From the IMG/VR virus record IMGVR_UViG_3300006143_000002: a stretch of DNA of 64,000 nt. One strand, given 5' to 3'. Origin of the DNA: a virus. Lineage: Duplodnaviria; Heunggongvirae; Uroviricota; Caudoviricetes. The notes under the pieces are model-generated. The model was not told the DNA's origin and made no database searches. It was given only the letters and a program-made list of their open reading frames with translations. Shown here one piece after another: positions 5,830 through 63,410 of this stretch. Position 1 is the stretch's first letter. Every line of letters begins with the position of its first letter. The translations under genes and the position numbers were made by a program.

Positions 5830-8028
5830 CTAAATTAATCTATTACATCTATCATAAACTATCCTCATATAATTTCTACCACTTCCATCACTTTTAGCTT
5901 CATTGCTGTCTGCTGTTACATATTCTATATATTGAGAAAAGTTCTCTACTATATTGTTTGTATGGTCAAACTTAACATCATTATTATCAAATGAACCATA
6001 ATCATTTACCTGTTTCTTTGTTGCTACTATTCTATCATACCAATTAGCATAAGGGTATTGTGTTCTTAATATAGTTGTTCCTCTTACTACATTATTTGGT
6101 TGATTATTCCATACTACACCATAAGTATTCCTTACTCTATTTATTAATGCTTTAGAATTATTATAATGTGTTGCATATATTATATCTCCTCTAACTGGTG
6201 TAAATGATGCTGGTGTTATTGTAAATGTTCTAACATTACTCCATTCACTCCAATTATTTTTATCACCTGTATATTTCTTTTTAACTCTTACTCTCAATCT
6301 ATATGTTGTTGCAATAGGAAACCCTGATGCTTTAAATGGTGCAAATATCATTTTCCTTTGATATGTTAAATTACTTGCTAATGCACTTGATATAGATGCT
6401 GCTTGTGTACCTGTTGCTGTCTTACCTGCTGGGTCAGATGTTAATCTGAATACTTTATTATTTACTTCTATTTCTATATCATCATAATGATATGTTTCTA
6501 ATTCAGAACCTTTATCTGGGTCTGCTGGTAATTGAAAACATACTCTAAATTTTGTATTTATCCAATCAGAACCTTCTATTGGATATGTTATTGATGGTTT
6601 TGCTAATCTAGCAGCCATTACAACAAAATCACATTGAGTAGGAGATGTGAAATACCAATAATTACTTGCATAAGCTGGATTTGCTAATTGAGCTTGGTCA
6701 TTTCCAAAATAAGGTGTTATATCTACTTTAGTATGTTGCATTTTTGGTATATCTGCTTTTGGTATTACAAAACTCTTACTTGTTGTATAATATGTTTTTA
6801 CTACTGTTCCTGCTTGATTATATAATCTTATTCTATATCCTTGTGTATAACCAGCATCTGCTGTTGTTGTATCATATACCCAACTTAAATATATTCCTGT
6901 CAAACTGGTATCATTTATTACTAAATCGTCTTTACCTATTCCACTTCCACTTGAGTTATTTTTTCTATATGAAAGATTACCACAAGTTACACCTTTTAAT
7001 GGTTTATATATTACTTTAAAGGTGCAAGTCTTTTCTGCACTTTCCCAATTTGCTGAGTTATTTCTTCTTTTAACATGCATTGTTATTATTTGATTATCAT
7101 AAGCTTTTGGTACAAATCCTCTTAAATTTGCTCCACTTAAAGTAAATGTAGAATTATTACCTGCTGTTCCTACTTGTGTCCAAGCATTTCCTATATTTAC
7201 ACCACTATATGAACAATGTGCTAATGTGTAGAATTGTTGTTCTAGTGCTGCCCAAGCTCTATCATTAATTCCTGATTGTGTAAATGTTATTGTTTGATTT
7301 TGTGCATTTACAGCAGTAGGATTTGCAGATACACCTGTTATAGTAGGTTCTTGATATGTATAAAATGTTTTATGTCCTGTTTGATATTCTGCATGACCAT
7401 CACTAAACCTTATCCTAACATTATAAGAACTTCCATGTCTAAACCCATCACCCCAAGTTGGATAGAAACTACCCCATAAAGAATCTCCCTTACCATTTCC
7501 AAAACCAAAATCTCTTACACCATCTACTCTTGCTATTACCCAACCAAGTCCATTAGTACCACCATTTATCTTATAGTTTACATCTACTTTATCTCTATCT
7601 ACTTTTACTATTTGAGTAGCACTCCATATATCATAGGCAGGAGGAGAATATGGGTCTGGTACATATAATGTTAAAGAGCCAATAGTTACAGGTCCTCTTA
7701 GATTGGCAGAACAATGTCTTCCATTTGTAATATCAGGACATTCCATAGTTACTGAAATTGTATGATTTCCAGCACCTACATTTAAAGAACCTGACATAGA
7801 TATTCCACCACCAACCATTGCAACTGTTGTACTGCCAACCTGGTTACCATCTATGTAAAGTCTTACTGTATCTGACATTGAAGAGTGACCTGATGCAGTT
7901 AATACTTGATTTCCACTGAAAGAAGCACTTATGGTTAAACCTGAATAATTAGCACTTAAAGTTCCAGATACTTTTCTTCTAGGTGCTCCACCAGTATGCC
8001 AACCATTATCACACCAAACATCTGCCAT
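5830..8028 (-). CDS. tail fibre / structural protein (Ig/FN3-like, S/T/G-rich)
   Basis: Start moved to the internal Met (MADVWCDNG). The ORF-track N-terminus overlaps a terminator and the late motif. RBS AAGGAG precedes the ATG. Confidence 0.5.
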   Translation of the reverse strand: MADVWCDNGWHTGGAPRRKVSGTLSANYSGLTISASFSGNQVLTASGHSSMSDTVRLYIDGNQVGSTTVAMVGGGISMSGSLNVGAGNHTISVTMECPDITNGRHCSANLRGPVTIGSLTLYVPDPYSPPAYDIWSATQIVKVDRDKVDVNYKINGGTNGLGWVIARVDGVRDFGFGNGKGDSLWGSFYPTWGDGFRHGSSYNVRIRFSDGHAEYQTGHKTFYTYQEPTITGVSANPTAVNAQNQTITFTQSGINDRAWAALEQQFYTLAHCSYSGVNIGNAWTQVGTAGNNSTFTLSGANLRGFVPKAYDNQIITMHVKRRNNSANWESAEKTCTFKVIYKPLKGVTCGNLSYRKNNSSGSGIGKDDLVINDTSLTGIYLSWVYDTTTADAGYTQGYRIRLYNQAGTVVKTYYTTSKSFVIPKADIPKMQHTKVDITPYFGNDQAQLANPAYASNYWYFTSPTQCDFVVMAARLAKPSITYPIEGSDWINTKFRVCFQLPADPDKGSELETYHYDDIEIEVNNKVFRLTSDPAGKTATGTQAASISSALASNLTYQRKMIFAPFKASGFPIATTYRLRVRVKKKYTGDKNNWSEWSNVRTFTITPASFTPVRGDIIYATHYNNSKALINRVRNTYGVVWNNQPNNVVRGTTILRTQYPYANWYDRIVATKKQVNDYGSFDNNDVKFDHTNNIVENFSQYIEYVTADSNEAKSDGSGRNYMRIVYDRCNRLI

Positions 8029-18361: not shown

Positions 18362-20818
18362 TTATACTCCTCCATTTGCATAATATTCATTTCTTAATGA
18401 AATAATATTATCTTTTTTCCTTAGTTCAACTATCTTACTGATATTTTCTTTACCAATATTAATATTTTCTTTTATATTTTCACAAGTATAACCTGTTTCT
18501 GTTCTAGTTTTTATTTGTTTTTGCATAATTATACTTTCACCATCTTCTGCTAGTTCACATTGTTTTAAATCAGATAATTTTACAAAATCATTATTTATAT
18601 TATCTAATATTTTCATATACTCAACACATTTATCATCATATTTATCTTTAATAAATTTATAAAAATAATTCGCAGTTGCATTATATAGTTTTCTTAATTC
18701 TACATTTTTACCATTCATAGTCATTTCATAAACAGTCCTCATAGACTTCCAAAAAGAATAATAACTAAATTTAAGCTTTGTCATAAATGTTCCACATTCA
18801 ATTACAACGCCTTCTATATCTGTGTCTATTAATTCATTTTGATTTTTATGTTGTTCATAAAATTCAGTTAATTGCCTATATGTATCAAATTTAATATATA
18901 CTTGCTTATAATCTGTATCTTTTAATTTTAACGATTTAGCAATTTGCATTAATCCATCATAAGGTATCTTCTCAAAATCTACTTTATTATGAATTATATC
19001 TAATAAGACAACTCTACTTTCTTTTTCATCTATAATATGAGGGTCATTTTCTAAATCTATAACTTCAAATGTCATTGACATATTATTATTTTTTAGAAAT
19101 ACTGTAATATTGTCTATTTGTTCTTCTGTAAATGTATTATAAAATAAATTTTTAAAATACATTGCATATTCTCCACAATTTGAAGATTTACTATGAAATT
19201 GTAAATTATCATTATAATAACTTAAAATGCCCAAGAAACCATTATATTTTTTATAAGCAACAACTTCTTCATCTGTATCAAATAATCTCTTTAAATTAAA
19301 TAATCTACATGATTCTTGTTCGTTTATATTAAAGAACTTTTCATAACCTCTTGCTACTATTTTATTATTTACAGTATCTATAAATAAACCTCTTGCTTTA
19401 ACAGTTTCCTTATCCCATTTATCTTTTTCAAATGCTTTACGTGTAAAGTTGAATGATGATATTCCACCTTCTAATACACTTTCTCTTATATTTCTATTAT
19501 TTCTTAATCTATCTACAATATTTTCTATATTTATTTCTTGTGTATTTACTATTTGTTGGTGTTCTTCCCAAGATGTATCCCTATATAAGTCATTTTTTAT
19601 ACTATGGAAAAATATACCCTTATTTGTTAATTCTGCTACTTTTAGATTTCCACCAAATTCAACACCATCCTCTAATGAGAATGATAAAGGTAAATCTCTC
19701 ATTGGTTTTTCTGGTGCAATATATCTATGTCCGTGTATTTGTATTATTGATTTATTTTTCATGTTTTCTGTATATGATTCGTCAATAGGGAATTTGAAAG
19801 CTCCAACACCATGTATCATTTGACTTGTTGATATTAAAGGTAAATTATTTGGGATAGTATTCAATCCCCCATGACATACAAAATATGTTTGTCCTTTAAA
19901 GTTTATATAAGCCATTTGTCCTAGTTTTCTATAAAACTTTCTCATACTTGATGGGTCTATTGATTTAATTTGTGGTAATGTAAAGTTCATAAATTCTTTA
20001 CTTTTAATCTCGCTATCCAGTTCATTTGCCCAATACCAAATAAATCTTTCATGATTTCCTTCTAATAAAAGTACATTACTTTTTTGACATATACTAATAA
20101 TAAATTCTAATACTTCCTTATTTTGTAGTCCTCTATCTAAATAGTCCCCTACAAATATATAAGCATCTTCATCATTTAAAAATTGATGTAAATTTTGAGA
20201 ATTTACTTCTTCTTGATATTCTGTATATGTTTGTTTTAGTATATATTCTTTTAATGGGTTAAAACAACCATGAATATCTCCTATAATATGTATTCTTTTA
20301 TACTCATTAAAATCAAATTCTTTATTACTAAATGTTTCCCAAAACTTATCTCTAGGAATATCTACCCAACCACTTGTCTTTTCTTGAGTTTCAAATCTTG
20401 CATACATTTTATCAATTACTTCATCAGGAACTCTTTTATAGGCATTTCTTTGATGATTTCTTTCTATACATACTTCTTTTGGTACATCTGTAAATGATAC
20501 TACATACTTTCTATATCTATATGATTCACATAATGAATTATATCTACTAAAATCTGTTGAACGGCTATGTGTTGCATCTATTATAGTAAAATCTCCATTT
20601 TTCATTCTTTTCTCTAATAATTCATATAATAATGACCATATATAAGATTCATTTTCTTGTGATATAGTTGCATCTGTTCCATTTTCTGTCAATATTGGTG
20701 CAGATGCCATCATTCTTATATTATCTGGGCTTATTGTATATTGCTCTAAACCATTTTCTTTTATCCAGGTTGATTTACCTGAACCTGGGCATCCCCTTAA
20801 AACCACTAAATTTCTCAT
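18362..20818 (-). CDS. pnkp: trifunctional polynucleotide kinase / metallophosphatase / RNA ligase (bacterial Pnkp-like)
   Basis: P-loop GCPGSGKST. Calcineurin-like motifs GDIHG, GDYLDRG, GNHE. C-terminal covalent nucleotidyltransferase motifs I KYNG, III TFEVID, IV EGVVIE, V KLK in order. Start set at MRNLVV after RBS GAGAGGTAGG. The ORF-track N-terminal extension overlaps the promoter. Confidence 0.75.
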   Translation of the reverse strand: MRNLVVLRGCPGSGKSTWIKENGLEQYTISPDNIRMMASAPILTENGTDATISQENESYIWSLLYELLEKRMKNGDFTIIDATHSRSTDFSRYNSLCESYRYRKYVVSFTDVPKEVCIERNHQRNAYKRVPDEVIDKMYARFETQEKTSGWVDIPRDKFWETFSNKEFDFNEYKRIHIIGDIHGCFNPLKEYILKQTYTEYQEEVNSQNLHQFLNDEDAYIFVGDYLDRGLQNKEVLEFIISICQKSNVLLLEGNHERFIWYWANELDSEIKSKEFMNFTLPQIKSIDPSSMRKFYRKLGQMAYINFKGQTYFVCHGGLNTIPNNLPLISTSQMIHGVGAFKFPIDESYTENMKNKSIIQIHGHRYIAPEKPMRDLPLSFSLEDGVEFGGNLKVAELTNKGIFFHSIKNDLYRDTSWEEHQQIVNTQEINIENIVDRLRNNRNIRESVLEGGISSFNFTRKAFEKDKWDKETVKARGLFIDTVNNKIVARGYEKFFNINEQESCRLFNLKRLFDTDEEVVAYKKYNGFLGILSYYNDNLQFHSKSSNCGEYAMYFKNLFYNTFTEEQIDNITVFLKNNNMSMTFEVIDLENDPHIIDEKESRVVLLDIIHNKVDFEKIPYDGLMQIAKSLKLKDTDYKQVYIKFDTYRQLTEFYEQHKNQNELIDTDIEGVVIECGTFMTKLKFSYYSFWKSMRTVYEMTMNGKNVELRKLYNATANYFYKFIKDKYDDKCVEYMKILDNINNDFVKLSDLKQCELAEDGESIIMQKQIKTRTETGYTCENIKENINIGKENISKIVELRKKDNIISLRNEYYANGGV

Positions 20819-20836
20819 AAAATTTCCTACCTCTCT

Positions 20837-20865
20837 GTTTTTGTTTATTATATAATAAGTTTTAA
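20837..20865 (-). promoter_or_regulatory. consensus promoter (extended family member), drives pnkp
   Basis: Reverse complement reads CTTGACATATTTTAAAACTTATTATATAAT. Confidence 0.6.
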
Positions 20866-20881
20866 AATATGTCAAGTATTT

Positions 20882-23902: not shown

Positions 23903-23977
23903 TGGCAGGAGTGCTAGGATTTGAACCCAGACAAACAGTTTTGGAGACTGCTGTGCTACCATTAACACTACACTCCT
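23903..23977 (-). tRNA. tRNA-Trp (anticodon CCA)
   Basis: 75-nt cloverleaf folded by hand: 7-bp acceptor AGGAGTG/CACTCCT, D-stem GTGT/GCAC, anticodon stem GCAGT/ACTGT with loop CTCCAAA, T-arm CTGGG-TTCAAAT-CCTAG, discriminator G and encoded CCA. Confidence 0.65.
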
Positions 23978-23986
23978 ATATAGGGT

Positions 23987-24062
23987 TGGAGCTTCATATT
24001 GGATTCGAACCAATGGTCACAGATTTGCAATCTGTTGCCTTAACCAACTTGGCTAATGAAGC
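23987..24062 (-). tRNA. tRNA-Cys (anticodon GCA)
   Basis: 76 nt: acceptor GCTTCAT/ATGAAGC, anticodon stem ACAGA/TCTGT with loop TTGCAAA, T-arm ATTGG-TTCGAAT-CCAAT, encoded CCA. Confidence 0.65.
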
Positions 24063-24086: not shown

Positions 24087-24875
24087 CTACTCTTCTTCTG
24101 GTACTAATAAAAATTTATCTATAAAATCTCTATCTTTATTAAATAATGGTATTTCTGTATCACAGAATATTCCCTCATCTTTTCTATATACACAAAATCC
24201 TCTTTTCCATTTAGTTTCTAAATTATTCCAATTTATATTGTACTTTTCCATTAACATATCTTGTATATCACTTGTATTTTTCTTATCAAGTTGTTTTTGA
24301 CTAAACTTTGATTGTCCTAGTGATTGTATTGAGTTTCTTGATGCATCTTGTTGCCTCCATAAAAAGTAATTACATACATCTTCCTTTGGTATATTAAATG
24401 CTCTTGCATCAAACATTGCTATACCCATTTTCTTTTGCCATTTATTAAATAAGTCTAAATTCTCTGGTTCATCTGAATTTGCATAACCAGACCAAGCTAA
24501 TACCTTTTGTGTTACAAACTTATTAAAATACATTGTTGCTGCTGATGCTATTACTGAACATACCTTTTGTAATCTATAATCAAAATAACTATCAGTAGTT
24601 AATTTATCCCAGTCTGTTAATAATAAACTTATCTCATCAGACTGTGTATATGCTAACTTGCACCCTTGAACACTCAATATAAGATTTTCACAAACATATT
24701 GCATTACTTGTGATAGTATTTCATCAAATGGTTTATCTAAACCTCTTGTAAATGTGTGGAATGCTTTACCATCTATTCTTACTATAACAGGTGTTCTTTT
24801 TGTAAGTTTAACATCTGATACAGATTCATAATCTTTCATTCTATCACTTAATGTTTTTATCTTTGAATTTGACAT
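24087..24875 (-). CDS. thg1: Thg1-like protein (tRNA 3'-5' nucleotidyltransferase, TLP)
   Basis: Collinear matches to the Thg1 family: VIVRIDGKAFHTFT, KPFD, LAYTQSDEISLLL, FDARAFNIPKEDVCNYFLWRQQDASRNSI, KYNINWNNLETKWKRG. Confidence 0.8.
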   Translation of the reverse strand: MSNSKIKTLSDRMKDYESVSDVKLTKRTPVIVRIDGKAFHTFTRGLDKPFDEILSQVMQYVCENLILSVQGCKLAYTQSDEISLLLTDWDKLTTDSYFDYRLQKVCSVIASAATMYFNKFVTQKVLAWSGYANSDEPENLDLFNKWQKKMGIAMFDARAFNIPKEDVCNYFLWRQQDASRNSIQSLGQSKFSQKQLDKKNTSDIQDMLMEKYNINWNNLETKWKRGFCVYRKDEGIFCDTEIPLFNKDRDFIDKFLLVPEEE

Positions 24876-25057: not shown

Positions 25058-25861
25058 CTATATTGTAAAATCATAATTTAAAGCTTTCTCATTTATATCT
25101 ATCAACCATTTATTTATTTTATGATAATCTGGTGTCTTTTGTAATGTACTTTCATCATAGTATTGGTGTATCTCTTTATCTAATCTGTCAAACATATCAA
25201 ATATTTCTTCTAATGTATATTTTCCTGCTCTTATATCTAATAATAATTTTCTCTCTTCTTCTGGTCTGTAAGAACAATAATCATGTGTTAATAATATTTG
25301 TTTTGCACAATATAGTAATCTTATAGCATGATAAGCAAATTTAGTATCATAACCAAATTTTTCAACTAAATCTTGTCTGCCAGTTCCATTTTGCTTCTTT
25401 ATATCTAGTTTATACCTTTGTGACATTGCAAATCCACAAAACTTTTTATATATTTCCTTAGATAAAAATTCTTTTCTTATACTTCTTAACTCTTTTCCAA
25501 AATCATCTATATGAATTATATCTTCATCTCTACAAAATAGTATATCAATATTATTTGGTACACCTTGCATAGCGTCTCTAACAAATTTATTTATATGGCA
25601 TATTACTATATCAATATCTTCTTTTGTATTATGTTCTCCAAAATTTTTACCACCAGACTTATTATATTCATTTATAGATTTTAATCCTAAATAATATTCT
25701 TTTGGTGGAATACATACACCCTTATAATCAGTATCAGATGTTTCTACATTTGTTCCATATATAACTGAACCTGCTTTAGTTAATAATATTGTTCTGTCTT
25801 CCAACCACATCATATTATCTGGTAGAACATGTTCTATATCTTTAAAACTAACTTTTGCCAT
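25058..25861 (-). CDS. Pol-beta-superfamily nucleotidyltransferase (RlaP / PF10127-like, RNA-repair-associated type)
   Basis: GSVIYGTNVETSDTDYKGV matches the hG[GS]...SDxD nucleotidyltransferase signature. 267 aa. Adjacent to the Thg1-like gene. Confidence 0.5.
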   Translation of the reverse strand: MAKVSFKDIEHVLPDNMMWLEDRTILLTKAGSVIYGTNVETSDTDYKGVCIPPKEYYLGLKSINEYNKSGGKNFGEHNTKEDIDIVICHINKFVRDAMQGVPNNIDILFCRDEDIIHIDDFGKELRSIRKEFLSKEIYKKFCGFAMSQRYKLDIKKQNGTGRQDLVEKFGYDTKFAYHAIRLLYCAKQILLTHDYCSYRPEEERKLLLDIRAGKYTLEEIFDMFDRLDKEIHQYYDESTLQKTPDYHKINKWLIDINEKALNYDFTI

Positions 25862-34767: not shown

Positions 34768-34859
34768 TGGCGACATAGCTAGGATTTGAACCTAGGAACC
34801 CATTTCTGGATTGCCAGTTTTCAAGACTGGTGCATTAAACCAAACTCTGCCACTATGCC
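34768..34859 (-). tRNA. tRNA-Ser (anticodon TGA), type II
   Basis: 92 nt: acceptor GGCATAG/CTATGTC, 3-bp D-stem with long loop, anticodon stem CCAGT/ACTGG with loop CTTGAAA, long variable arm, T-arm CTAGG-TTCAAAT-CCTAG, encoded CCA. Confidence 0.6.
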
Positions 34860-34872
34860 CTATTTTTATTTA

Positions 34873-34944
34873 CAGCCATTGTTGGATTCGAACCAACCTC
34901 TCCTTACATTAGTAAAGTAATTTTTCCTACTAAACTAAATGACT
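34873..34944 (-). tRNA. tRNA-like gene, non-canonical (good acceptor and T-arm, aberrant D/anticodon region)
   Basis: Acceptor AGTCATT/AATGGCT, T-arm GTTGG-TTCGAAT-CCAAC. The central region folds as CTTTAC-TAAT-GTAAGG rather than a 7-nt anticodon loop. Confidence 0.3.
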
Positions 34945-35032
34945 ATATTAAAAAGATGCTTGATTTCTGCAGCTCTCAGCATCTTTTTGCCTAATCTCTA
35001 TATAGTGAATTCTGCCTATATATTTTAGACTT

Positions 35033-35103
35033 GCCTTTGAAATGGATTCGAACCATTGACTCCCTGTCGCATACAGGGGATTTTCCCACTAAACTATCAA
35101 AGG
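35033..35103 (-). tRNA. tRNA-like gene, anticodon loop TATGCGA (possible TGC/Ala, with A at position 33)
   Basis: Acceptor CCTTTGA/TCAAAGG, anticodon stem CCCTG/CAGGG, T-arm AATGG-TTCGAAT-CCATT. The D-arm is irregular. Confidence 0.35.
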
Positions 35104-35197
35104 GTATAATGTAAAGTAGGAGTAAATTATATTGACGTCAAATATAAATTTTATATCTAATGCGAGATACTATATTAACCTACTTTATTTTTGCATA

Positions 35198-35259
35198 TCA
35201 CCTGTTATGGATTCGAACCACTTTCTCCTATACATATATTTTCATACATGCAGCAGGTG
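35198..35259 (-). tRNA. tRNA-like fragment (T-arm and acceptor only, ~62 nt)
   Basis: TTCGAAT T-loop with a 6-bp acceptor. Too short for a D-arm and anticodon arm, so probably a pseudo-tRNA. Confidence 0.2.
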
Positions 35260-35264
35260 TTATT

Positions 35265-35339
35265 TGGTCGCAGGGGTTGGATTTGAACCAACATCGTCCG
35301 AAATATGGGCTCAGCTATGCTATATTACACCACCCTGCT
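35265..35339 (-). tRNA. tRNA-like gene, possible CAT anticodon, non-canonical
   Basis: Acceptor (A)GCAGGG/CCCTGC(G) with a 1:72 mismatch, T-arm GTTGG-TTCAAAT-CCAAC, encoded CCA. Anticodon stem CTGAG/TTCGG has wobble pairs and loop CCCATAT. D-arm is poor. Confidence 0.3.
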
Positions 35340-35343
35340 ATAT

Positions 35344-35419
35344 TGGGTGCGAGGGCTGGATTCGAACCAGCGAACTCTAGCTTATGAGGCTAGTGAGATG
35401 CCAACTTCTCCACCTCGCA
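35344..35419 (-). tRNA. tRNA-Met/Ile2 (anticodon CAT)
   Basis: 76-nt canonical cloverleaf: acceptor TGCGAGG/CCTCGCA, D-stem GAGA/TCTC, anticodon stem CTAGC/GCTAG with loop CTCATAA, T-arm GCTGG-TTCGAAT-CCAGC, discriminator C and CCA. Confidence 0.65.
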
Positions 35420-35454
35420 GTATTAAATTATTAGCATTACCTAATTAAAGGCTG

Positions 35455-35526
35455 GTCGAGTACATTGGATTCAAACCAATTCCATCATCCACCTGTTGGA
35501 TGCCGTGCACCATACACCATACTCGA
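35455..35526 (-). tRNA. tRNA-like gene, anticodon loop AACAGGT (non-canonical, no U33)
   Basis: Perfect 7-bp acceptor TCGAGTA/TACTCGA, D-stem GTGT/GCAC, anticodon stem CATCC/GGATG, T-arm ATTGG-TTTGAAT-CCAAT with one extra nucleotide before the acceptor. Confidence 0.35.
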
Positions 35527-35700
35527 TATATATATATACAAATGATTTAAGGTATATCATCAACCACACATCGAGCATTATTTATTTTTCATAGACTAAA
35601 CTATGATTAATCTATTTCATCTCATGCTCTATTTTGTTCACCTTTGAGAACCCTATGAAATAGATTATATATTACTTATACATAATATATAACATCTTTA

Positions 35701-35793
35701 TGGCGATAAGGGAGGGATTCGAACCCTCGATACATAATTAAATGTATGTCTCCTTAGCAGAGAGATGGTTTAAACCTACTCACCCACCTTACC
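35701..35793 (-). tRNA. tRNA-Ser (anticodon GCT), type II
   Basis: 93 nt: acceptor GGTAAGG/CCTTATC, anticodon stem TCTCT/GGAGA with loop CTGCTAA, long variable-arm hairpin ATACAT...ATGTAT, T-arm GAGGG-TTCGAAT-CCCTC, discriminator G and CCA. Confidence 0.6.
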
Positions 35794-36358: not shown

Positions 36359-37903
36359 TTATTTAATTTTTTTATAAATTCTACTAAATGCCTCATATTC
36401 ACTTAAACATACTGGCTTAAAATTATTAACATCTACACCAACATTATATGAATTTTTAATCTTTTTTATAATATGGCTATTGCTATGAATATGCCCATAT
36501 AGATGAGTGCTACCATATTCTTTTTGTTTCCATGAAGATATTGGAAAATGAAATAATATGTATTTCTTATTATTGACTGTTATTTCTTTATAATCAACTA
36601 TCTCCTCAAATAAAGACTGGTCAAAATCTTTTCCAATACATATATTATCATGATTTCCTAATATAAGTATCTTTCTACCTCGTAATCTCTTAACAATTTC
36701 ATTAGTTTCTTTACTATTTCTAAATGATAAATCACCTAATATGAACACTAAATCATCATCATGTTTTACTGTACTATTCCATCTTCTTATAAGTTCTTCA
36801 TCATGAATTTTTATATATTCCTTATTAACCTCCATTTTATATTTATCCCAAAGGTCATCTGGTATATTATAAATTTCTTCATTTGTCAAACCTTCATCTT
36901 TTAATTTATTTACTATTGCTTGATGTTGGGTTATTCCACATAACTCCCATCTTTTTGGTTCAAAGTCTAATATATTTTCATGTCCAAAATGTAAGTCAGA
37001 TGTAAAAAATATTTTATCTGAGGTTGGTAACGATAGACCGCTTTTTCTTCTCCATTTATTTCTTTTTGGTGTAAAAATATTTCTTAAATATTTTTCAAAT
37101 ATTTTAACAGAGATTTTACTTAAAAATTCTTTAACCATGTCTTCACTATTTACTTCATTAAAAAACATATTTCTATGTGACTTTAATTGATTTATACTAT
37201 CATTTGCCAAATCTCTTGCTTCTTCTAATGAATATTTGCTTAATTTAGCATTAGTTAAAACTTCAATATTATCTTCCATATAATTATGGGAATTCATAGA
37301 TTTTTTAAAATCAAATGTTTCTATATATTTTTCTGCAAATAAATTTAATCTTAGTATATGATGTAATTGTTTTCCATCATATCCATATTTTTCTATCTTA
37401 TCTCTCAACCCTTCATAAGGATGTTCTAATGCTTCTAATTTATTTAAAGCCATACCATAAGTACAAACTATTAATTTTACTGGATTTGCACTAGAAATCA
37501 TATCAGCATTATCTAATATTTCTAACATATCATTTTTAAATAATGGGTTTAATATTCTAAATTCTGTATGTAATATTTCAAGATATTTTATATTTTGTTT
37601 TCTAAATAATTCTGTTATTAACCTAATATCTTTAACATCTATATGTTCATTATTATCTAATATTATTGTTTCAGATATATATTCATCCTTATTTATTAAG
37701 TTTTCAAAGGTAGGTAATACAATAGCTACTGTATCTATATCAGATTTATACTCATCTGTATATAAATCTAAATTATAATTTTGACTTCCTTGTAAGGCTA
37801 CCATTAAAAACTCATATTGTGGTCTCAATCTTTTTAATTCATTTACATGGTACTTTATACCTTTAAATATATTATTTTTTCTTTGTTTATCTATATCTGC
37901 CAT
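36359..37903 (-). CDS. Pol-beta nucleotidyltransferase (RlaP-like) fused to a calcineurin-like metallophosphoesterase
   Basis: N-terminal ALQGSQNYNLDLYTDEYKSDIDTVAIV nucleotidyltransferase signature. C-terminal metallophosphoesterase motifs SDLHFGHEN, ILGDLSF, GNHDN, GHIH. Lies directly upstream of the tRNA-array promoter. Confidence 0.55.
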   Translation of the reverse strand: MADIDKQRKNNIFKGIKYHVNELKRLRPQYEFLMVALQGSQNYNLDLYTDEYKSDIDTVAIVLPTFENLINKDEYISETIILDNNEHIDVKDIRLITELFRKQNIKYLEILHTEFRILNPLFKNDMLEILDNADMISSANPVKLIVCTYGMALNKLEALEHPYEGLRDKIEKYGYDGKQLHHILRLNLFAEKYIETFDFKKSMNSHNYMEDNIEVLTNAKLSKYSLEEARDLANDSINQLKSHRNMFFNEVNSEDMVKEFLSKISVKIFEKYLRNIFTPKRNKWRRKSGLSLPTSDKIFFTSDLHFGHENILDFEPKRWELCGITQHQAIVNKLKDEGLTNEEIYNIPDDLWDKYKMEVNKEYIKIHDEELIRRWNSTVKHDDDLVFILGDLSFRNSKETNEIVKRLRGRKILILGNHDNICIGKDFDQSLFEEIVDYKEITVNNKKYILFHFPISSWKQKEYGSTHLYGHIHSNSHIIKKIKNSYNVGVDVNNFKPVCLSEYEAFSRIYKKIK

Positions 37904-55792: not shown

Positions 55793-56161
55793 TTATTTTG
55801 TTTCTTCTGTTTTAGCTTCTTCTAATTCAGGTGTTACTGGTGTGTACCAGCTTGCTTTAAATCCTTTTATTGCAGCTTCTATTAAAATTGTTGCTTCTGC
55901 TTCTGTAATAGTTATTCCTTTTTCTTCTAACCATTCAACAGATGTTTCAAGAGCTTTTTGTAATTTCTCTTTTCCATCTAATGCTTCATACACTTGTTGT
56001 ACATACTTAACTGTTGCTTCCACAACTTCTTTTTTAGTATCTGTATTGATTTTTTCTTCAAATTTATTTTTTATCTTTAATGCTACATAACCTGCAATAG
56101 CTGTAACTATTGTAACTACATAAGGCATTAAAGCTGTTATGATTTGATTTACTTGTTCCAT
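55793..56161 (-). CDS. holin-like single-TM protein
   Basis: N-terminal TM ITALMPYVVTIVTAIAGYVALKI with a charged C-terminus, two genes from the endolysin. Confidence 0.4.
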   Translation of the reverse strand: MEQVNQIITALMPYVVTIVTAIAGYVALKIKNKFEEKINTDTKKEVVEATVKYVQQVYEALDGKEKLQKALETSVEWLEEKGITITEAEATILIEAAIKGFKASWYTPVTPELEEAKTEETK

Positions 56162-56166
56162 ATAAA

Positions 56167-56499
56167 CTACCTCCTATTAAAATAACTTGTTATTTCTTTA
56201 ATAACCTTTACATTTCCCAATAAGGGTTCATTATCATGCCCATTTAATCTTATTCTATCTCCTATTACTAGATATACCCTTGAATTTGAATACATTAAAA
56301 ATTCAAAATAATCTAACAATGTACTACTATTAGGATTATCTGGAAGCTTAGGGTAGTAGTATCCATCGGCATAAATTGCTTCATATACAGATACCCCAGC
56401 TTCCTCACCTACAATTTCATCCCCCAAATGGATTTTACTTTTACCATTTTCAGGTATTTCGCCAAATCTAATATATACTGGTACACTTGCTTGTTTCAT
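56167..56499 (-). CDS. hypothetical protein
   Basis: 110-aa ORF between the endolysin and the holin-like gene. Confidence 0.3.
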   Translation of the reverse strand: MKQASVPVYIRFGEIPENGKSKIHLGDEIVGEEAGVSVYEAIYADGYYYPKLPDNPNSSTLLDYFEFLMYSNSRVYLVIGDRIRLNGHDNEPLLGNVKVIKEITSYFNRR

Positions 56500-56528
56500 A
56501 ATTATATTTCCTACCTCTCTAAATATGA

Positions 56529-57710
56529 TTATTGAACATCTTTCTTATATACCCAAGACATAATCTCTTTTAATAGTATTCCATCTGGATGTGTATTACC
56601 ACTTCCTACTTGCATTATAGTATAAGATTTTCCCTTGATTGAACTTGGAATTGTTTGTCCTGTACAATATCTACCTGCTGATGTCTTTAATGTTACTCTT
56701 TGTCCTTTACTAAATCCTGCAGGTGCTGATGGTTGAGGTGTTGGTGCTGAATTTCCACCTACAATACAACTATCATTTACCCATCCAATATTACCATTGT
56801 TTAATAGATATGGATTATTTGCACCATTTACTATTTTTGTAATAGTACCTGATTTAACAGCTGGATTTAATTTCTTTGTTGACATTGATGATGTGAATAC
56901 ACCATTTATTGAAACATTTTCACCTACATAGTGTCCTTTAGGTTGTGTTGGTGCAGATGGTGTTGAACTTCCACCAACTCTCTTTGTAAAATCTAAACAA
57001 ATCCACCCTGTTCCAGATTTTAGTCTACCCCAATTACCTTGAGTTTCAACTATTGTATAAACACCTCTATCTCTTATACAACCTGTTATCGCATTTCCTG
57101 TTCCAGCTCCACTCCTAATATTTAATGCTCTTGTTGTTATTTGTACTAAATAACTGTCACCATTTACTGCTGGAGCAGGAGCTGGTGTTGGTATAGGTGC
57201 AACAGATGTACCAGATAATTCTGCATACTTTTGTCTAACTATATTCCAAAATCTTTCTAGTCCCATATCAAGTGTTCTATGAGGACAATATTTACCACTT
57301 CTACTTTGATGTGTATTTACAACTTTTGTTCCTATTGTATCTACACCCCATCCATATTGAAGCATAATTCTTGCAGTTAATTCAGCAGCATTTCTTTCGG
57401 CTGCTTCAAATCTTGCTCCTCCTGATTTACTATAACATATTTCTATTCCTATTGTTTGTCTATTTCCAAATCCACCACCATCACCAGCATGCCAAGCATT
57501 TCTATTATGTTCTATTGCTTGAACAGCTCTTACATCATCTACTGCCCAGTGGTATGATACTTTATTATTATTTGTAATCATATATGATACTTCATTTTTT
57601 GCAGAAGCATCATTAGCTGTATTATGAATGGTGATTCCTTGTGGATTCATTTCATAGGGTGCTTTACACCAATATTTACTTGATGGGCATAACATTTTTA
57701 CTATTTCCAT
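56529..57710 (-). CDS. endolysin: N-acetylmuramoyl-L-alanine amidase (amidase_2/PGRP) with three SH3b repeats
   Basis: Amidase_2 motifs GITIHNTAND...YHWAVDD...AWHAGD...GIEI...CPH. Three SH3b-like repeats (SYLVQITTRALNIRSG..., HYVGENVSINGVF..., FSKGQRVTLKTSAGRY...). Start set at MEIVKM after RBS AGGAGG. Confidence 0.75.
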   Translation of the reverse strand: MEIVKMLCPSSKYWCKAPYEMNPQGITIHNTANDASAKNEVSYMITNNNKVSYHWAVDDVRAVQAIEHNRNAWHAGDGGGFGNRQTIGIEICYSKSGGARFEAAERNAAELTARIMLQYGWGVDTIGTKVVNTHQSRSGKYCPHRTLDMGLERFWNIVRQKYAELSGTSVAPIPTPAPAPAVNGDSYLVQITTRALNIRSGAGTGNAITGCIRDRGVYTIVETQGNWGRLKSGTGWICLDFTKRVGGSSTPSAPTQPKGHYVGENVSINGVFTSSMSTKKLNPAVKSGTITKIVNGANNPYLLNNGNIGWVNDSCIVGGNSAPTPQPSAPAGFSKGQRVTLKTSAGRYCTGQTIPSSIKGKSYTIMQVGSGNTHPDGILLKEIMSWVYKKDVQ

Positions 57711-57711
57711 T

Positions 57712-57978
57712 TTACTTTTCCTCCTCTTTCTCACCTTTACTTTTTTCTTTTTCTAAAACCTTTGTAAGTTCTTGAATTGTAGTTTGTAAATCATTTATTA
57801 TCATTCTAACAACCTCTGACCTATCTCCTATATCTAAATAATTCTTTGCCATTCCAAATTGATAAGCTGGATAGGTATGTTCTGTATCAACAATGTGTGT
57901 AATACCATCTTCCTGTACTTTAGTTTTTTGATACCATGTTTTATGAATTTCAAACTCAACATCATTACTTAACCTCAT
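57712..57978 (-). CDS. hypothetical protein
   Basis: 88 aa, E/K-rich C-terminus. Confidence 0.3.
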   Translation of the reverse strand: MRLSNDVEFEIHKTWYQKTKVQEDGITHIVDTEHTYPAYQFGMAKNYLDIGDRSEVVRMIINDLQTTIQELTKVLEKEKSKGEKEEEK

Positions 57979-59715: not shown

Positions 59716-59961
59716 TTATCTATCCTTTCTGTATCTATTTAATTTTCTTTCTATTTCATATACAATTTCTGTATTAATTTGTTCTGTACTTATAGGATTG
59801 ACTGTGTACCAATCTTCTCCTAAAAAGAACCTACATAATTCATCTACTGCTGTTTGTGCTGTCATTAGGGAAGGAAACATACCATAGTCCTTCATATCAG
59901 TTAGATGGAATAATCTGTCAAAAGTTTCTCTTTCTGTTTCTTTTCTTTTAGGTATAATCAT
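59716..59961 (-). CDS. hypothetical small protein
   Basis: 81-aa ORF. Confidence 0.3.
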   Translation of the reverse strand: MIIPKRKETERETFDRLFHLTDMKDYGMFPSLMTAQTAVDELCRFFLGEDWYTVNPISTEQINTEIVYEIERKLNRYRKDR

Positions 59962-60372: not shown

Positions 60373-61128
60373 CTAATCTTCTAAATAATTATTTTCTAAA
60401 TACACATATCCAAAATCTAATAATACTATTAATATAATCCATAATAACCAAAATCCAGTTACAGCACCAGTAACACTTGTTTGTCTATTTCTTATGACTT
60501 CATCAATACTACTATTATAATAAAATTCATTATCTACTATTGTATTATTTTCTATATGTGTAAACAACACACCATTAAAAGATATTGGTATTGCATAATA
60601 TTTATATCTAATATAATAACTTTCCTTTACAGTATCTATATATTTATCATTGTTGAATTTAATTGTATTATAATCAAATATAGAATTTAAAAACTTAAAT
60701 TGATTTACGTGTTTAATTTCACTAGACACATAATCCCATTCCCAGTATGTTTCTGTTGTATAATATGTTTCTGTTTTAGTACCACCATTACCATCTGGAA
60801 CTGTTCTTGTATGTTCTACTTGTCTTGTATGTTTAGTATATTCTTCTTTAACCTTCTTTATATAAAAATATTTTCCATTAATTCCATCATAGGAAACACC
60901 ATCTATTCCCTCAACAATTCCTGACGCTAATACATATCCTATATTTGTTTTTAAAGCATAACTAAACATATCCATATCATTATCTACCTTTAATGATTTA
61001 TAATATTTATCATTTGATTCATCTATACTATTTCTAATTGAACTTGCAATAAAAAATCCAATACCAATTAAAAATAAAGTTAATGCAATAGTAATCATTA
61101 TTTCTCTCTTAGTAACTTTAAATTCCAT
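60373..61128 (-). CDS. membrane protein (N- and C-terminal TM helices), LemA partner
   Basis: TM helices at both ends. Adjacent to LemA, as in LemA/TPM-type pairs. Confidence 0.35.
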   Translation of the reverse strand: MEFKVTKREIMITIALTLFLIGIGFFIASSIRNSIDESNDKYYKSLKVDNDMDMFSYALKTNIGYVLASGIVEGIDGVSYDGINGKYFYIKKVKEEYTKHTRQVEHTRTVPDGNGGTKTETYYTTETYWEWDYVSSEIKHVNQFKFLNSIFDYNTIKFNNDKYIDTVKESYYIRYKYYAIPISFNGVLFTHIENNTIVDNEFYYNSSIDEVIRNRQTSVTGAVTGFWLLWIILIVLLDFGYVYLENNYLED

Positions 61129-61140
61129 TTTAAATTACCT

Positions 61141-61683
61141 CTAATTATCTTTAAATAGATTTCTTGGAGCATCTTCTGATGCATCATATTCAAGATAATC
61201 TGTATCTATTTTTTCAAACCCCATCATATTTAATATCATATTATTTGGAAATTTCTTAATATACTTATTATATTTCTTAACTTGAATATTATAATTATTT
61301 CTATGCTCTGCAATTAAATTTTCGGTTGTAGATAATTCTGTCATCAATGTTTTATAATTTTCATTTGACTTTAATTCTGGATATTTTTCTGCAACTGCAT
61401 TTATTAATACCTGTGCTTCTTCTACTTGTCCGTTACTTGCTTTTGTTCTTGCTTCCACTATTTTGGTCATAGTATCCTGCTCATATTTATTATAACTTTC
61501 AACTGTATCTACTAAATTATAAATTAAATCTTCTCTTCTCTTTTCTTGTATATTAATACTTGATTTACTTTCTTTAATTTGTTCACTTAAACTTATTGCA
61601 GTATTATTTATACCTGCAAACATTCCTATAATTAGTATCAATAATCCAAATGCTATGCCTAACATTATCAAACTCTTTTTCAT
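61141..61683 (-). CDS. lemA: LemA-family protein
   Basis: N-terminal TM, then RREDLIYNLVDTVESY...AEKYPELKSNENY...ENLIAEHRNNYN...YNKYIKKFPNN, the LemA signature. Confidence 0.65.
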   Translation of the reverse strand: MKKSLIMLGIAFGLLILIIGMFAGINNTAISLSEQIKESKSSINIQEKRREDLIYNLVDTVESYNKYEQDTMTKIVEARTKASNGQVEEAQVLINAVAEKYPELKSNENYKTLMTELSTTENLIAEHRNNYNIQVKKYNKYIKKFPNNMILNMMGFEKIDTDYLEYDASEDAPRNLFKDN

Positions 61684-61952: not shown

Positions 61953-62155
61953 TAATATACACCTCCTTCATCTGTTATATTACTTATTAATATTTCTTCT
62001 ATTTCATCTTCAGATACATAATAATTTCCTGTAACTGCATTTAATACATAATCTATAACATCTTCTGGACAATCTCCTAAAATATTTATTAGTTGATTTG
62101 CATAAAATGTAACATTTTTAATATCTTCTTTTTCCATCTTATTTGTCCTTTCCAT
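61952..62155 (-). CDS. hypothetical small protein
   Basis: 67-aa ORF. Confidence 0.25.
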   Translation of the reverse strand: MERTNKMEKEDIKNVTFYANQLINILGDCPEDVIDYVLNAVTGNYYVSEDEIEEILISNITDEGGVY

Positions 62156-62369
62156 ATTTTCCTATACTCACATTTAATGGACTTACATCAATAATTCCTA
62201 GTTCATGTTCTTCTATAATTTCTTCATGATTTTTAGTTGTCACTATTTTTGCTCTTCCGTTGTGTACTTTTATTTCTGTTAAATAATAATCATCAAAAGA
62301 TTTTTCAAATTTTACTAAACAACTTCCTGTATAGTATTTTGTATATCCATATACTTCCCTATCTGCCAT
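62139..62369 (-). CDS. hypothetical small protein
   Basis: 76-aa ORF. Confidence 0.25.
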   Translation of the reverse strand: MADREVYGYTKYYTGSCLVKFEKSFDDYYLTEIKVHNGRAKIVTTKNHEEIIEEHELGIIDVSPLNVSIGKYGKDK

Positions 62370-62380
62370 ATCTATACCTC

Positions 62381-63229
62381 CTATATTTCATATTGACATT
62401 TAACACAAGCATCTACATTGTTTGAAAACATCATTCTTTCAATAATCTTTCTATCTTTATTTTTCTTTAATGGTTTAGTTATTTCTATTAATATACAACT
62501 TGTATTTTTAGATTCTACAACTCTATTACATATTATACCATTCTTAAATCTAGCAGAAAGAACACTGTTATTTTCAAAATCATAATTATATTGTTCTTTT
62601 AGTATTTTTATAAGTTCTTCGCAAGACTTACTATTTGCATCATTTTTATTTATAAATGTAGATGCTGCATATACAAGTGCATCTCTTCTTGAATATAAAT
62701 GTTTTAAATAAATATAATCGTATAGTCTTTCTTTTGGTAAATTAAATGCTTTTACCTCAAATATTGATTTTAATAATTTTTGTTTATAAACAGATGTATC
62801 TAATATATGTTCTAAATGTCTATTTTTATTTTTATATTCCTGTTGTTTAATTTCATCTTGCAAAGCATCGTTGAATATACTTACAGCTTTACTTGCAACT
62901 ACACTTGATATATAGCTTATTGTTTTACTTCCCTTTAACAGAGATAGTGTACCATTTCCATTTATAGGTACAAATATTAAATCTATTTCATTATGACTAT
63001 AATACCCTAATGTACAACCTGGTAATTCTCTACATAATGTTCTCACAGTCTGAACCATTGCAGATGAATATACAGCATCATAAGGTTTTTTAAACTCTTT
63101 ACAAAACTCCTTAAACTCTTGTTGTTTTACCCTTACTATATAAGGTTCTGTCTTAATTATTTTTAATTCCTTATCGCTTTCATATATTCCAAAAATCTCA
63201 CTCAATTTAATCATTTCTTGTTTAATCAT
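62381..63229 (-). CDS. divergent Thg1-like paralogue lacking the catalytic carboxylates
   Basis: PYIVRVKQQEFKEFCKEFKKPYD, GYYSHNEIDLIFV, KAFNLPKERLYDYIYLKH align with the RIDGxxFH, SDE and FNIPKE...NYFxWR blocks of Thg1/TLP, but D to K and D to N substitutions sit at metal-binding positions. Confidence 0.5.
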   Translation of the reverse strand: MIKQEMIKLSEIFGIYESDKELKIIKTEPYIVRVKQQEFKEFCKEFKKPYDAVYSSAMVQTVRTLCRELPGCTLGYYSHNEIDLIFVPINGNGTLSLLKGSKTISYISSVVASKAVSIFNDALQDEIKQQEYKNKNRHLEHILDTSVYKQKLLKSIFEVKAFNLPKERLYDYIYLKHLYSRRDALVYAASTFINKNDANSKSCEELIKILKEQYNYDFENNSVLSARFKNGIICNRVVESKNTSCILIEITKPLKKNKDRKIIERMMFSNNVDACVKCQYEI

Positions 63230-63410
63230 TTTTATAACCTCCTCTATACTTTAAATTAAACCTCATTGATAAAACTATCAAATGATTACACTCATTGCAA
63301 CAAATACCATCGTTTACTGGATAAGCATTATTCCCATATCCCTTAAATTGTTTATCACAAATACTACAAATTTTGTCTTCCATATTAACTTCTTCACATA
63401 TCTCATTCAA
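63222..63410 (-). CDS. Zn-ribbon small protein
   Basis: CSICDK...CCNECN. Confidence 0.3.
   Translation of the reverse strand: MNEICEEVNMEDKICSICDKQFKGYGNNAYPVNDGICCNECNHLIVLSMRFNLKYRGGYKND

Follow-up and report, generated by a model that had tools for sequence, protein, structure and literature searches.

A predicted non-catalytic Thg1-like protein conserved in a small lineage of AT-rich gut phages

Thg1 and the Thg1-like proteins (TLPs) are, to our knowledge, the only polymerases that work in the 3'-5' direction. Pseudoenzymes are common in large protein families, and among palm-domain proteins, degenerate GGDEF domains and others have lost catalysis but kept nucleotide binding, acting as receptors. 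The protein described here is encoded in a 64,000-nucleotide stretch of phage DNA (IMG/VR record IMGVR_UViG_3300006143_000002), hereafter called the window, which also carries the gene of a canonical, apparently active TLP. It is a second and highly diverged member of the Thg1 family in which two of the three metal-binding carboxylates have been replaced, and it is referred to below as the degenerate TLP, the other copy being the canonical paralogue. All biochemically characterised TLPs catalyse templated 3'-5' addition, and a review from 2019 mentions no inactive members (PMC6471195). Literature searches on phage TLPs, Thg1 pseudoenzymes and jumbo-phage TLPs returned no description of a natural and conserved, catalytically dead member of the family.

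The closest described systems are the TLPs of bacteria and phages, represented by the protein from Bacillus thuringiensis (BtTLP; structures 4KGK and 4KGM) and by the PHROG 4717 proteins of large Bacillus, Fusobacterium, and Xanthomonas phages. In BtTLP, D30 and D75 coordinate two Mg2+ ions, and the substitution D75A dramatically decreases activity. The gamma-phosphate of the incoming nucleoside triphosphate (NTP) is bound by R131 and by K99', whereas the activating NTP is contacted at N7 by S74 and at N3 by K43, its base being sandwiched by L49 and T38 (PMC3701042). With alanine at the metal carboxylates, Thg1 can no longer carry out any step of its chemistry (PMC6471195). The degenerate TLP resembles these proteins in family, fold, domain order, and approximate length, and is likewise encoded by a large phage carrying tRNAs and RNA-repair genes. 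It also keeps several of their conserved elements, namely the K-P-x-D motif, R33, E81, F-N, F..FN.PK, G231, and the beta-hairpin. In contrast, it lacks both metal aspartates, the serine of the SDE motif, the lysine acting in trans, the arginine of the FDxR motif, the GDRMK motif, and the WRQQD helix. It is, moreover, far more basic than canonical TLPs, shares just 22-29% identity with any of them, lies outside the RNA-repair module, and has a hairpin five residues longer than that of the canonical paralogue. Eukaryotic Thg1 proteins (human 3OTB and 7CV1, Candida 3WBZ, yeast 5XOX) have the same fold, with Foldseek E-values from 1e-8 to 5e-12, but are more distant than the bacterial TLPs. Compared with them, the degenerate TLP is devoid of D29, D76, and the motif that recognises the His anticodon, and its sequence offers no evidence of G-1 addition.

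A preliminary description of the window had proposed a second paralogue with the Thg1 fold, and this proposal is supported by sequence, profile, and predicted-structure comparisons. The degenerate TLP matches the Thg1 catalytic domain of Pfam (PF04446) over residues 16-131, with 56 bits against a gathering score of 29.2 (E=5e-15), and precomputed hits to the same domain are found in all of its close relatives. It also matches PHROG 4717, annotated as 'tRNA-His guanylyltransferase', over residues 15-267 (E=1e-20), and can be aligned by BLASTP with the canonical paralogue over approximately its full length (26% identity in 261 columns, E=2e-25). The best solved relative is 4KGK, found at E=2.7e-7 with a single-sequence query. 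A profile built exclusively from the degenerate clade, with no canonical sequences, reaches the same structure (E=1.2e-19) as well as human Thg1 (E=2.7e-4). The Thg1C domain (PF14413) gives no match at E<=1, yet the alignments to the paralogue and to PHROG 4717 run to about residue 267, and the canonical paralogue likewise stays under the PF14413 cutoff (24.2 vs 26.3).

The AlphaFold2 model of the degenerate TLP is confident and compact (mean predicted local distance difference test, pLDDT, 87.9; predicted template modelling score, pTM, 0.88), and shows the Thg1 fold with its palm, fingers, beta-hairpin, and N-terminal helix. All 32 significant Foldseek matches in the PDB are Thg1 or TLP structures, the best being 4KGM_B (E=6e-15, target-normalised TM score of 0.80), and in the viral structure library BFVD the model matches Thg1 proteins of giant viruses. 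Structure prediction, which had been suggested as a check, therefore leads to Thg1/TLP structures only and not to another fold. By both the family profile and the fold, the degenerate TLP belongs by descent to the Thg1/TLP superfamily, and its status as a true Thg1 homologue is held with great confidence.

The sequence blocks singled out at the outset align without gaps, IVRVKQQEF with IVRIDGKAF, YYSHNEIDLIF with YTQSDEISLLL, and FNLPKERLYDYIYLKH with FNIPKEDVCNYFLWRQ. The replacement of the metal-binding aspartates that had been read from them, with RIDG becoming RVKQ and SDE becoming HNE, is found exactly as claimed when the protein is aligned to 4KGK and to the canonical paralogue; both motifs are paired without gaps and with high posterior probability (IVRIDG with IVRVKQ, QSDEIS with SHNEID). 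BtTLP numbering was taken from the alignment of the paralogue with 4KGK and agrees with the residue numbers in PMC3701042. The three metal carboxylates, D29, D76, and E77 in human Thg1 or D30, D75, and E76 in BtTLP, correspond to K35, N80, and E81 of the degenerate TLP, the first two being lost and the third kept. A search for compensating acids found no conserved acidic residue standing in for the two lost aspartates in the sequence neighbourhood. Aspartate occupies both metal positions in 100% of the 216-241 canonical sequences compared, and the canonical paralogue, which matches 4KGK at E=1.2e-61, has D35, S79-D80-E81, K48, K104, and R158 all in place.

Judged from the alignment, the degeneration of the active site is broader than the two aspartates, since the serine, the trans lysine, the FDxR arginine, the GDRMK motif, and the WRQQD helix are also gone (Table 1). 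In 241 canonical sequences, conservation reaches at least 90% for GDRMK, which is N-terminal, and likewise for WRQQD. The K48-P49-x-D51 motif survives, and D51 is invariant in the clade. The conserved arginine of GDRMK was considered as the equivalent of BtTLP R16', an assignment that was rejected: this arginine is the counterpart of BtTLP R7, and even the canonical paralogue fails to conserve R16. Because the two-metal centre and most of the site for the incoming NTP have been lost, the degenerate TLP would almost certainly neither activate nor extend RNA 5' ends, and it is predicted with considerable confidence to have no 3'-5' transferase activity. The annotation 'tRNA-His guanylyltransferase' should not be applied to this protein, as two of the three carboxylates and two of the three basic residues involved in nucleotidyl transfer are missing.

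Relatives sharing these substitutions are few. A word-indexed search of 5.8 billion proteins returned only four close relatives, with identities of 42-99%. When 1.84 billion cluster representatives were scanned exhaustively with HMMER, 1040 family members came up, just five of them with E<1e-30; these five represent the clade, and after them comes a gap, the ordinary TLPs beginning at E values of around 1e-21. The clade comprises five clusters at 50% identity, and seven full-length members were used in the pattern comparison. DG is present in 230 and SDE in 244 of the 270 family sequences compared, and the canonical profile retrieved no degenerate sequence. At the DNA level, no match to the degenerate gene was found in cultured phages, and a tblastn search of 50,697 phage records with the protein gave a single hit, to a canonical TLP, and no clade member. 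Scanning IMG/VR and the GTDB species genomes for the pattern gave 36 and 41 loci, respectively, in every case canonical proteins with approximately 25% identity, and again no clade member.

Within the clade, the position of the first aspartate holds lysine or arginine in six of the seven members and threonine in one, and the adjacent glycine position holds glutamine in six and leucine in one; P0124 is the member with Thr and Leu at positions 35 and 36. The N-E pair at the second metal site is invariant, as are 37 positions in total. Such conservation of the substituted residues is what would be expected from a re-tooled site rather than a randomly decayed one, and could indicate an enzyme whose chemistry has changed. 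Using K/R35, N80, and E81, the protein would then act on RNA 5' ends or nucleotides, for instance as a transferase or hydrolase that needs one metal ion or none. The retention of R33 and K48 would agree with it. However, every step of Thg1 chemistry requires the two-metal site, and alanine at the carboxylates abolishes activity (PMC6471195; PMC3701042). In addition, the Thr and Leu of P0124 do not fit such a site, and the serine, lysine, and arginine of the NTP sites vary within the clade. No paper on altered chemistry in this fold was found in the literature search. We know of no precedent for it, and this explanation is considered very unlikely.

Loss of metal-binding aspartates is also seen elsewhere in the family. 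Eight metagenomic sequences (P0127, P0270, P0137, P0251, P0131, P0153, P0225, and P0266; loci L088, L096, and L097) likewise match the Thg1 family and are non-acidic at one or both metal-aspartate positions, with motifs such as KVGM/RNE, RVKN/SNE, or RITG/ADE. They are 35-46% identical to each other but less than 31% identical to the clade of the window, no closer than canonical TLPs are, and their genomic contexts differ from that of the degenerate TLP and are uninformative. Their interpretation as relatives, or as a recurring phage theme, was rejected, as they represent separate lineages. These sequences suggest that catalysis may have been lost independently, and more than once, in the Thg1 family.

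Several lines of evidence indicate that the gene is maintained and is not a pseudogene. The open reading frame (ORF) is intact in every lineage sampled, of which at least five are diverged, encoding 281-283 amino acids, down to 38% identity. The ratio of nonsynonymous to synonymous substitution rates (dN/dS, Nei-Gojobori) is 0.19 against the 70%-identical orthologue of locus L001, where dS is about 1.05 and still measurable; dS is near saturation in all but two of the comparisons. Together with a strong ribosome-binding site (RBS) and conserved synteny, these features show that the degenerate TLP is evolutionarily functional and not a decaying duplicate. The reading of the gene as a decaying pseudogene was rejected on the basis of dN/dS, the invariant positions, the intact ORFs, and the RBS with translational coupling. 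A functionless relic on its way to being lost could account for the missing catalytic residues, for the lowest identity among neighbouring genes, and for the dN/dS of 0.43-0.69 in the deepest comparisons, in which dS is saturated. This possibility is highly improbable in view of the full-length ORFs everywhere sampled, the low dN/dS, the RBS and coupling, the 37 invariant positions, and the confident AlphaFold2 model.

The degenerate TLP is read here, with moderate confidence, as a diverged, non-catalytic Thg1/TLP pseudoenzyme that a small group of AT-rich gut phages has retained for binding without chemistry. The features that fit a docking function are the retained fold, the surviving R33, K48, and E81, the new tyrosine Y54, a positive charge at the place of Mg2+, and a basic surface. 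The whole Thg1 fold has been kept, and the two-metal centre has been lost by changes from Asp to Lys or Arg and from Asp to Asn. The surviving parts of the site are R33, aligned with the arginine in contact with the triphosphate, K48, aligned with the lysine in contact with the activating purine, and E81, joined by the new Y54 at the position of the leucine that sandwiches the base. A positive charge conserved in the clade (K/R35) would sit where Mg2+ was bound, in a protein that is strongly basic as a whole: isoelectric points (pI) in the clade range from 8.0 to 9.3 and net charges from +2 to +13, whereas the canonical paralogue has a pI of 6.0 and carries a net charge of -1, and the median pI of 216 canonical TLPs is 7.0. 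The old cleft would then hold, with no reaction, either the 5' end of an RNA (a tRNA or tRNA fragment) or a purine nucleotide. The protein would probably be a homo-oligomer, as other family members are, and the bound ligand could be sequestered, shielded, or marked during infection. That the protein works by binding RNA or a nucleotide in its old cleft is put forward tentatively. Degenerate GGDEF domains offer an analogy, with no claim of kinship, since they are also palm nucleotidyltransferase domains in which the catalytic acids are replaced and the nucleotide pocket may be partly conserved.

The strands of the former active site are the best conserved part of the protein within the clade, with a mean pairwise identity of 0.60-0.63 compared to 0.44 overall, which is suggestive of a ligand site. 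Several points nevertheless weigh against a binding role. Since the palm is built around the same strands, their conservation may be structural and need not mean a ligand site. Some of the residues implicated in contacting or positioning the tRNA in canonical enzymes are not retained, among them the arginine of the KRG motif, R131 (R136 in MaTLP), and the WRQQD helix. The placement of K35, N80, E81, and Y54 in the cleft comes from the alignment, and the multiple sequence alignment behind the AlphaFold2 model consists mostly of canonical TLPs, which may make the model look over-canonical. Finally, relaxed constraint would account for the rapid divergence of the gene no less well than an arms race.

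This divergence is apparent at deeper distances, where the degenerate TLP is the fastest-diverging gene of its module. It is 39% identical to its counterpart at locus L006, in comparison with 49-87% for 13 other shared genes, and 42% identical at loci L003 and L004, where its neighbours reach 53-74%. The canonical TLP, on the other hand, diverges at the average of its own module (74% vs 48-85%). This pattern has a place in another explanation, in which the pseudoenzyme would serve counter-defence or host takeover. Here, the Lys/Arg in place of Mg2+, the stacking Tyr, and the basic surface would clamp tRNA 5' ends or fragments or a purine signal, so that the protein could sequester tRNA pieces, block a host tRNA nuclease or a host TLP, or soak up a nucleotide signal. 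Host immunity based on tRNA targeting or nucleotide signalling would be blunted in this way, and the gene would evolve in an arms race alongside a Tad8-like Thoeris inhibitor. In the window, the co-directional block of the degenerate TLP does include a Tad8 homologue, 2.4 kb farther downstream, and L001 and L006 have it at the corresponding place; for Tad3-Tad8, binding to TIR domains or to Thoeris effectors has been reported (PMC13243611). The retained purine-pocket residues would also be consistent with such a role, and the heavy investment of the phage in tRNA repair implies an attack on tRNA by the host. Nonetheless, PADLOC gave no defence-system match for the degenerate TLP or its neighbours, nor was any other defence-related match found for the protein. 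A single anti-defence gene in a long co-directional block is weak evidence, and relaxed constraint after the loss of catalysis explains the fast evolution equally well. A counter-defence role is thus regarded as decidedly unlikely.

The canonical paralogue belongs to a different setting. Its gene adjoins those for tRNA-Cys and tRNA-Trp, an RlaP nucleotidyltransferase, a sigma factor, and a Pnkp-like kinase/phosphatase/RNA ligase, the last of which matches phrog_8238 (E=1e-201). A module with the TLP, the sigma factor, an AAA protein, and the Pnkp-ligase is shared by locus L090. The protein with nucleotidyltransferase and phosphoesterase domains encoded further away is possibly CCA-adding-like. 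The window contains eight tRNA genes, with tRNAs at 23903..24062 and 34768..35793. The degenerate TLP lies 38 kb from the canonical one, outside this RNA-repair module. Among large cultured phages, canonical TLPs are common, with 162 records and 163 places, and essentially always single-copy, and the pair of dead and canonical TLPs has been seen together in this window only. None of the relatives listed in a search with the canonical protein lies on the 222-kb contig of P0124 (CAPVUW010000005.1), and the closest ones sit in other samples or on short contigs.

The presence of both paralogues within one genome raises the question of whether the dead copy acts as a heteromer subunit or regulator of the canonical TLP, most likely damping or redirecting 5'-end repair. 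The preliminary description had named a tRNA-binding regulator, a decoy, or a heteromer subunit as possibilities only. In Thg1/TLP enzymes, the active site takes shape where two subunits meet, some residues being contributed in trans (K99', R16', D6'), and the tRNA is bound across subunits (PMC3701042; PMC4820378). The degenerate TLP keeps the full fold, including the N-terminal helix, as a subunit of this kind would. However, the two genes are located in different modules, the dead copy being placed between the helicase and LemA, and their products are only 26% identical. Since the trans lysine and the N-terminal GDRMK motif have been lost, a mixed dimer would probably lack any complete site, leaving inhibition as its only possible effect. 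The single-copy occurrence of the TLP in cultured phages, moreover, argues that the enzyme needs no such partner. A heteromeric function is therefore seen as unlikely.

As for its significance, this tiny clade is a variant of the Thg1 family with a predicted non-catalytic function, and is of moderate interest. A pseudo-TLP under selection beside an intact TLP in a tRNA-repairing phage would show that the fold has uses apart from polymerisation, and would provide a natural 'binding-only' variant with which substrate recognition could be told apart from chemistry; a dead copy under selection next to a live one makes a clean system that lends itself to testing. Should its role lie in tRNA protection or counter-defence, it would be a new player in the conflict between phages and hosts over tRNA integrity; if it were merely a slowly decaying duplicate, its interest would be minor.

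Table 1. Features of the window, with coordinates, and residues of the degenerate TLP aligned with functional residues of BtTLP
Feature	Position	Strand	Remarks
Degenerate Thg1-like protein, coding sequence	62381..63229	minus	282 amino acids, ATG start; Pfam, PHROG, BLASTP and PDB matches, AlphaFold2/Foldseek
Shine-Dalgarno sequence AGAGGAGG	63238..63245	minus	8 nt upstream of the ATG at 63229; read from the sequence; strong RBS
Small Cys-rich Zn-ribbon-like protein	63222..63410	minus	CSICxKxFxxxGNNAYPxNxGxCCxxCN; conserved upstream neighbour of the degenerate TLP
76-amino-acid protein	62139..62369	minus	Downstream of the degenerate TLP; neighbour in most, not all, relatives
LemA-family protein	61141..61683	minus	Pfam E=1e-34; PHROG 1383, annotated 'virion structural protein'
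251-amino-acid protein with two transmembrane segments	60373..61128	minus	phrog_3886; follows LemA
81-amino-acid Tad8-like protein	59716..59961	minus	Pfam PF25189 'Type II Thoeris inhibitor Tad8', E=2.1e-16, 59.9 bits vs cutoff 27
Canonical, apparently active TLP	24087..24875	minus	262 amino acids; Pfam PF04446 E=3e-31; comparator
Pnkp-like kinase/phosphatase/RNA ligase	18362..20875	minus	RNA-repair kit
RlaP nucleotidyltransferase	25058..25861	minus	RNA-repair kit
Nucleotidyltransferase+phosphoesterase	36359..37903	minus	RNA-repair kit
BtTLP R28 (triphosphate of incoming NTP)	R33		Kept; present in 5/7 clade members
BtTLP D30 (metal)	K35		Replaced; K/R/T in clade
BtTLP G31	Q36		Replaced
BtTLP K43 (N3 of activating ATP)	K48		Kept, clade-invariant
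BtTLP L49 (purine sandwich)	Y54		New, clade-invariant Tyr
BtTLP S74 (contacts N7)	H79		Replaced; H/T/Q/Y/L in clade
BtTLP D75 (metal)	N80		Replaced; N clade-invariant
BtTLP E76	E81		Kept, clade-invariant
BtTLP K99 (trans, neighbour's gamma-phosphate site)	Y106		Replaced; Y/H/V/Q in clade
BtTLP D129, R131 (FDxR motif)	E158, K160		Replaced; R131 position K/N/D/S in clade

The window has a G+C content of 27%, with nearly all genes on the minus strand, and is recognisable as phage DNA by its genes for a holin, an amidase, and terminase-like and tail-like proteins. The degenerate TLP is found in a conserved order consisting of a LysM protein, an SNF2 helicase, the Zn-ribbon, the degenerate TLP, small ORFs, LemA, and a membrane protein of approximately 250 amino acids, followed at a greater distance by the Tad8-like protein, the amidase, and the holin. 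This order is kept in every relative with sufficient flanking DNA, including the 222-kb contig. The start codon of the degenerate TLP overlaps the stop codon of the small ORF upstream (ATGATTAA), suggesting that the two are translationally coupled. The product of this ORF has a weak, below-cutoff Pfam treble-clef match, and homologues with 52-53% identity are encoded upstream of the degenerate TLP in L003 and L006. On the downstream side, the 76-amino-acid protein is 86% identical to its counterpart in L001 and 60% identical to the product of the gene downstream of P0004 in L003, has no counterpart at the L006 locus, and gave no match in Pfam, PHROG, or PADLOC. In all relatives, LemA and the two-transmembrane protein occur together shortly after the degenerate TLP, a tightly conserved pair with 69-87% identity.

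Some further observations concern the other genes mentioned above. Among the 162 cultured-phage records with a canonical TLP, Xanthomonas phage XacN1 (AP018399.1, L098) is the only one with two TLP-like matches, and the second copy was not found within +/-20 kb of the annotated one. Inside the tRNA cluster of the window, ARAGORN predicts on the minus strand (34872..34945) a tRNA to which it assigns no identity and whose 'anticodon' has only two bases (aa); this could be a tRNA with an unusual loop, a pseudo-tRNA, or a miscall. Lastly, the lysis cassette (an 88-amino-acid ORF, the amidase, a 110-amino-acid ORF, and the holin; 55793..57978) shares 98-100% protein identity with positions 7854..10036 of L001, while the genes flanking it show only 45-86% identity between the two, a pattern suggesting that these two phages, though diverged elsewhere, have recently exchanged the lysis module by recombination.

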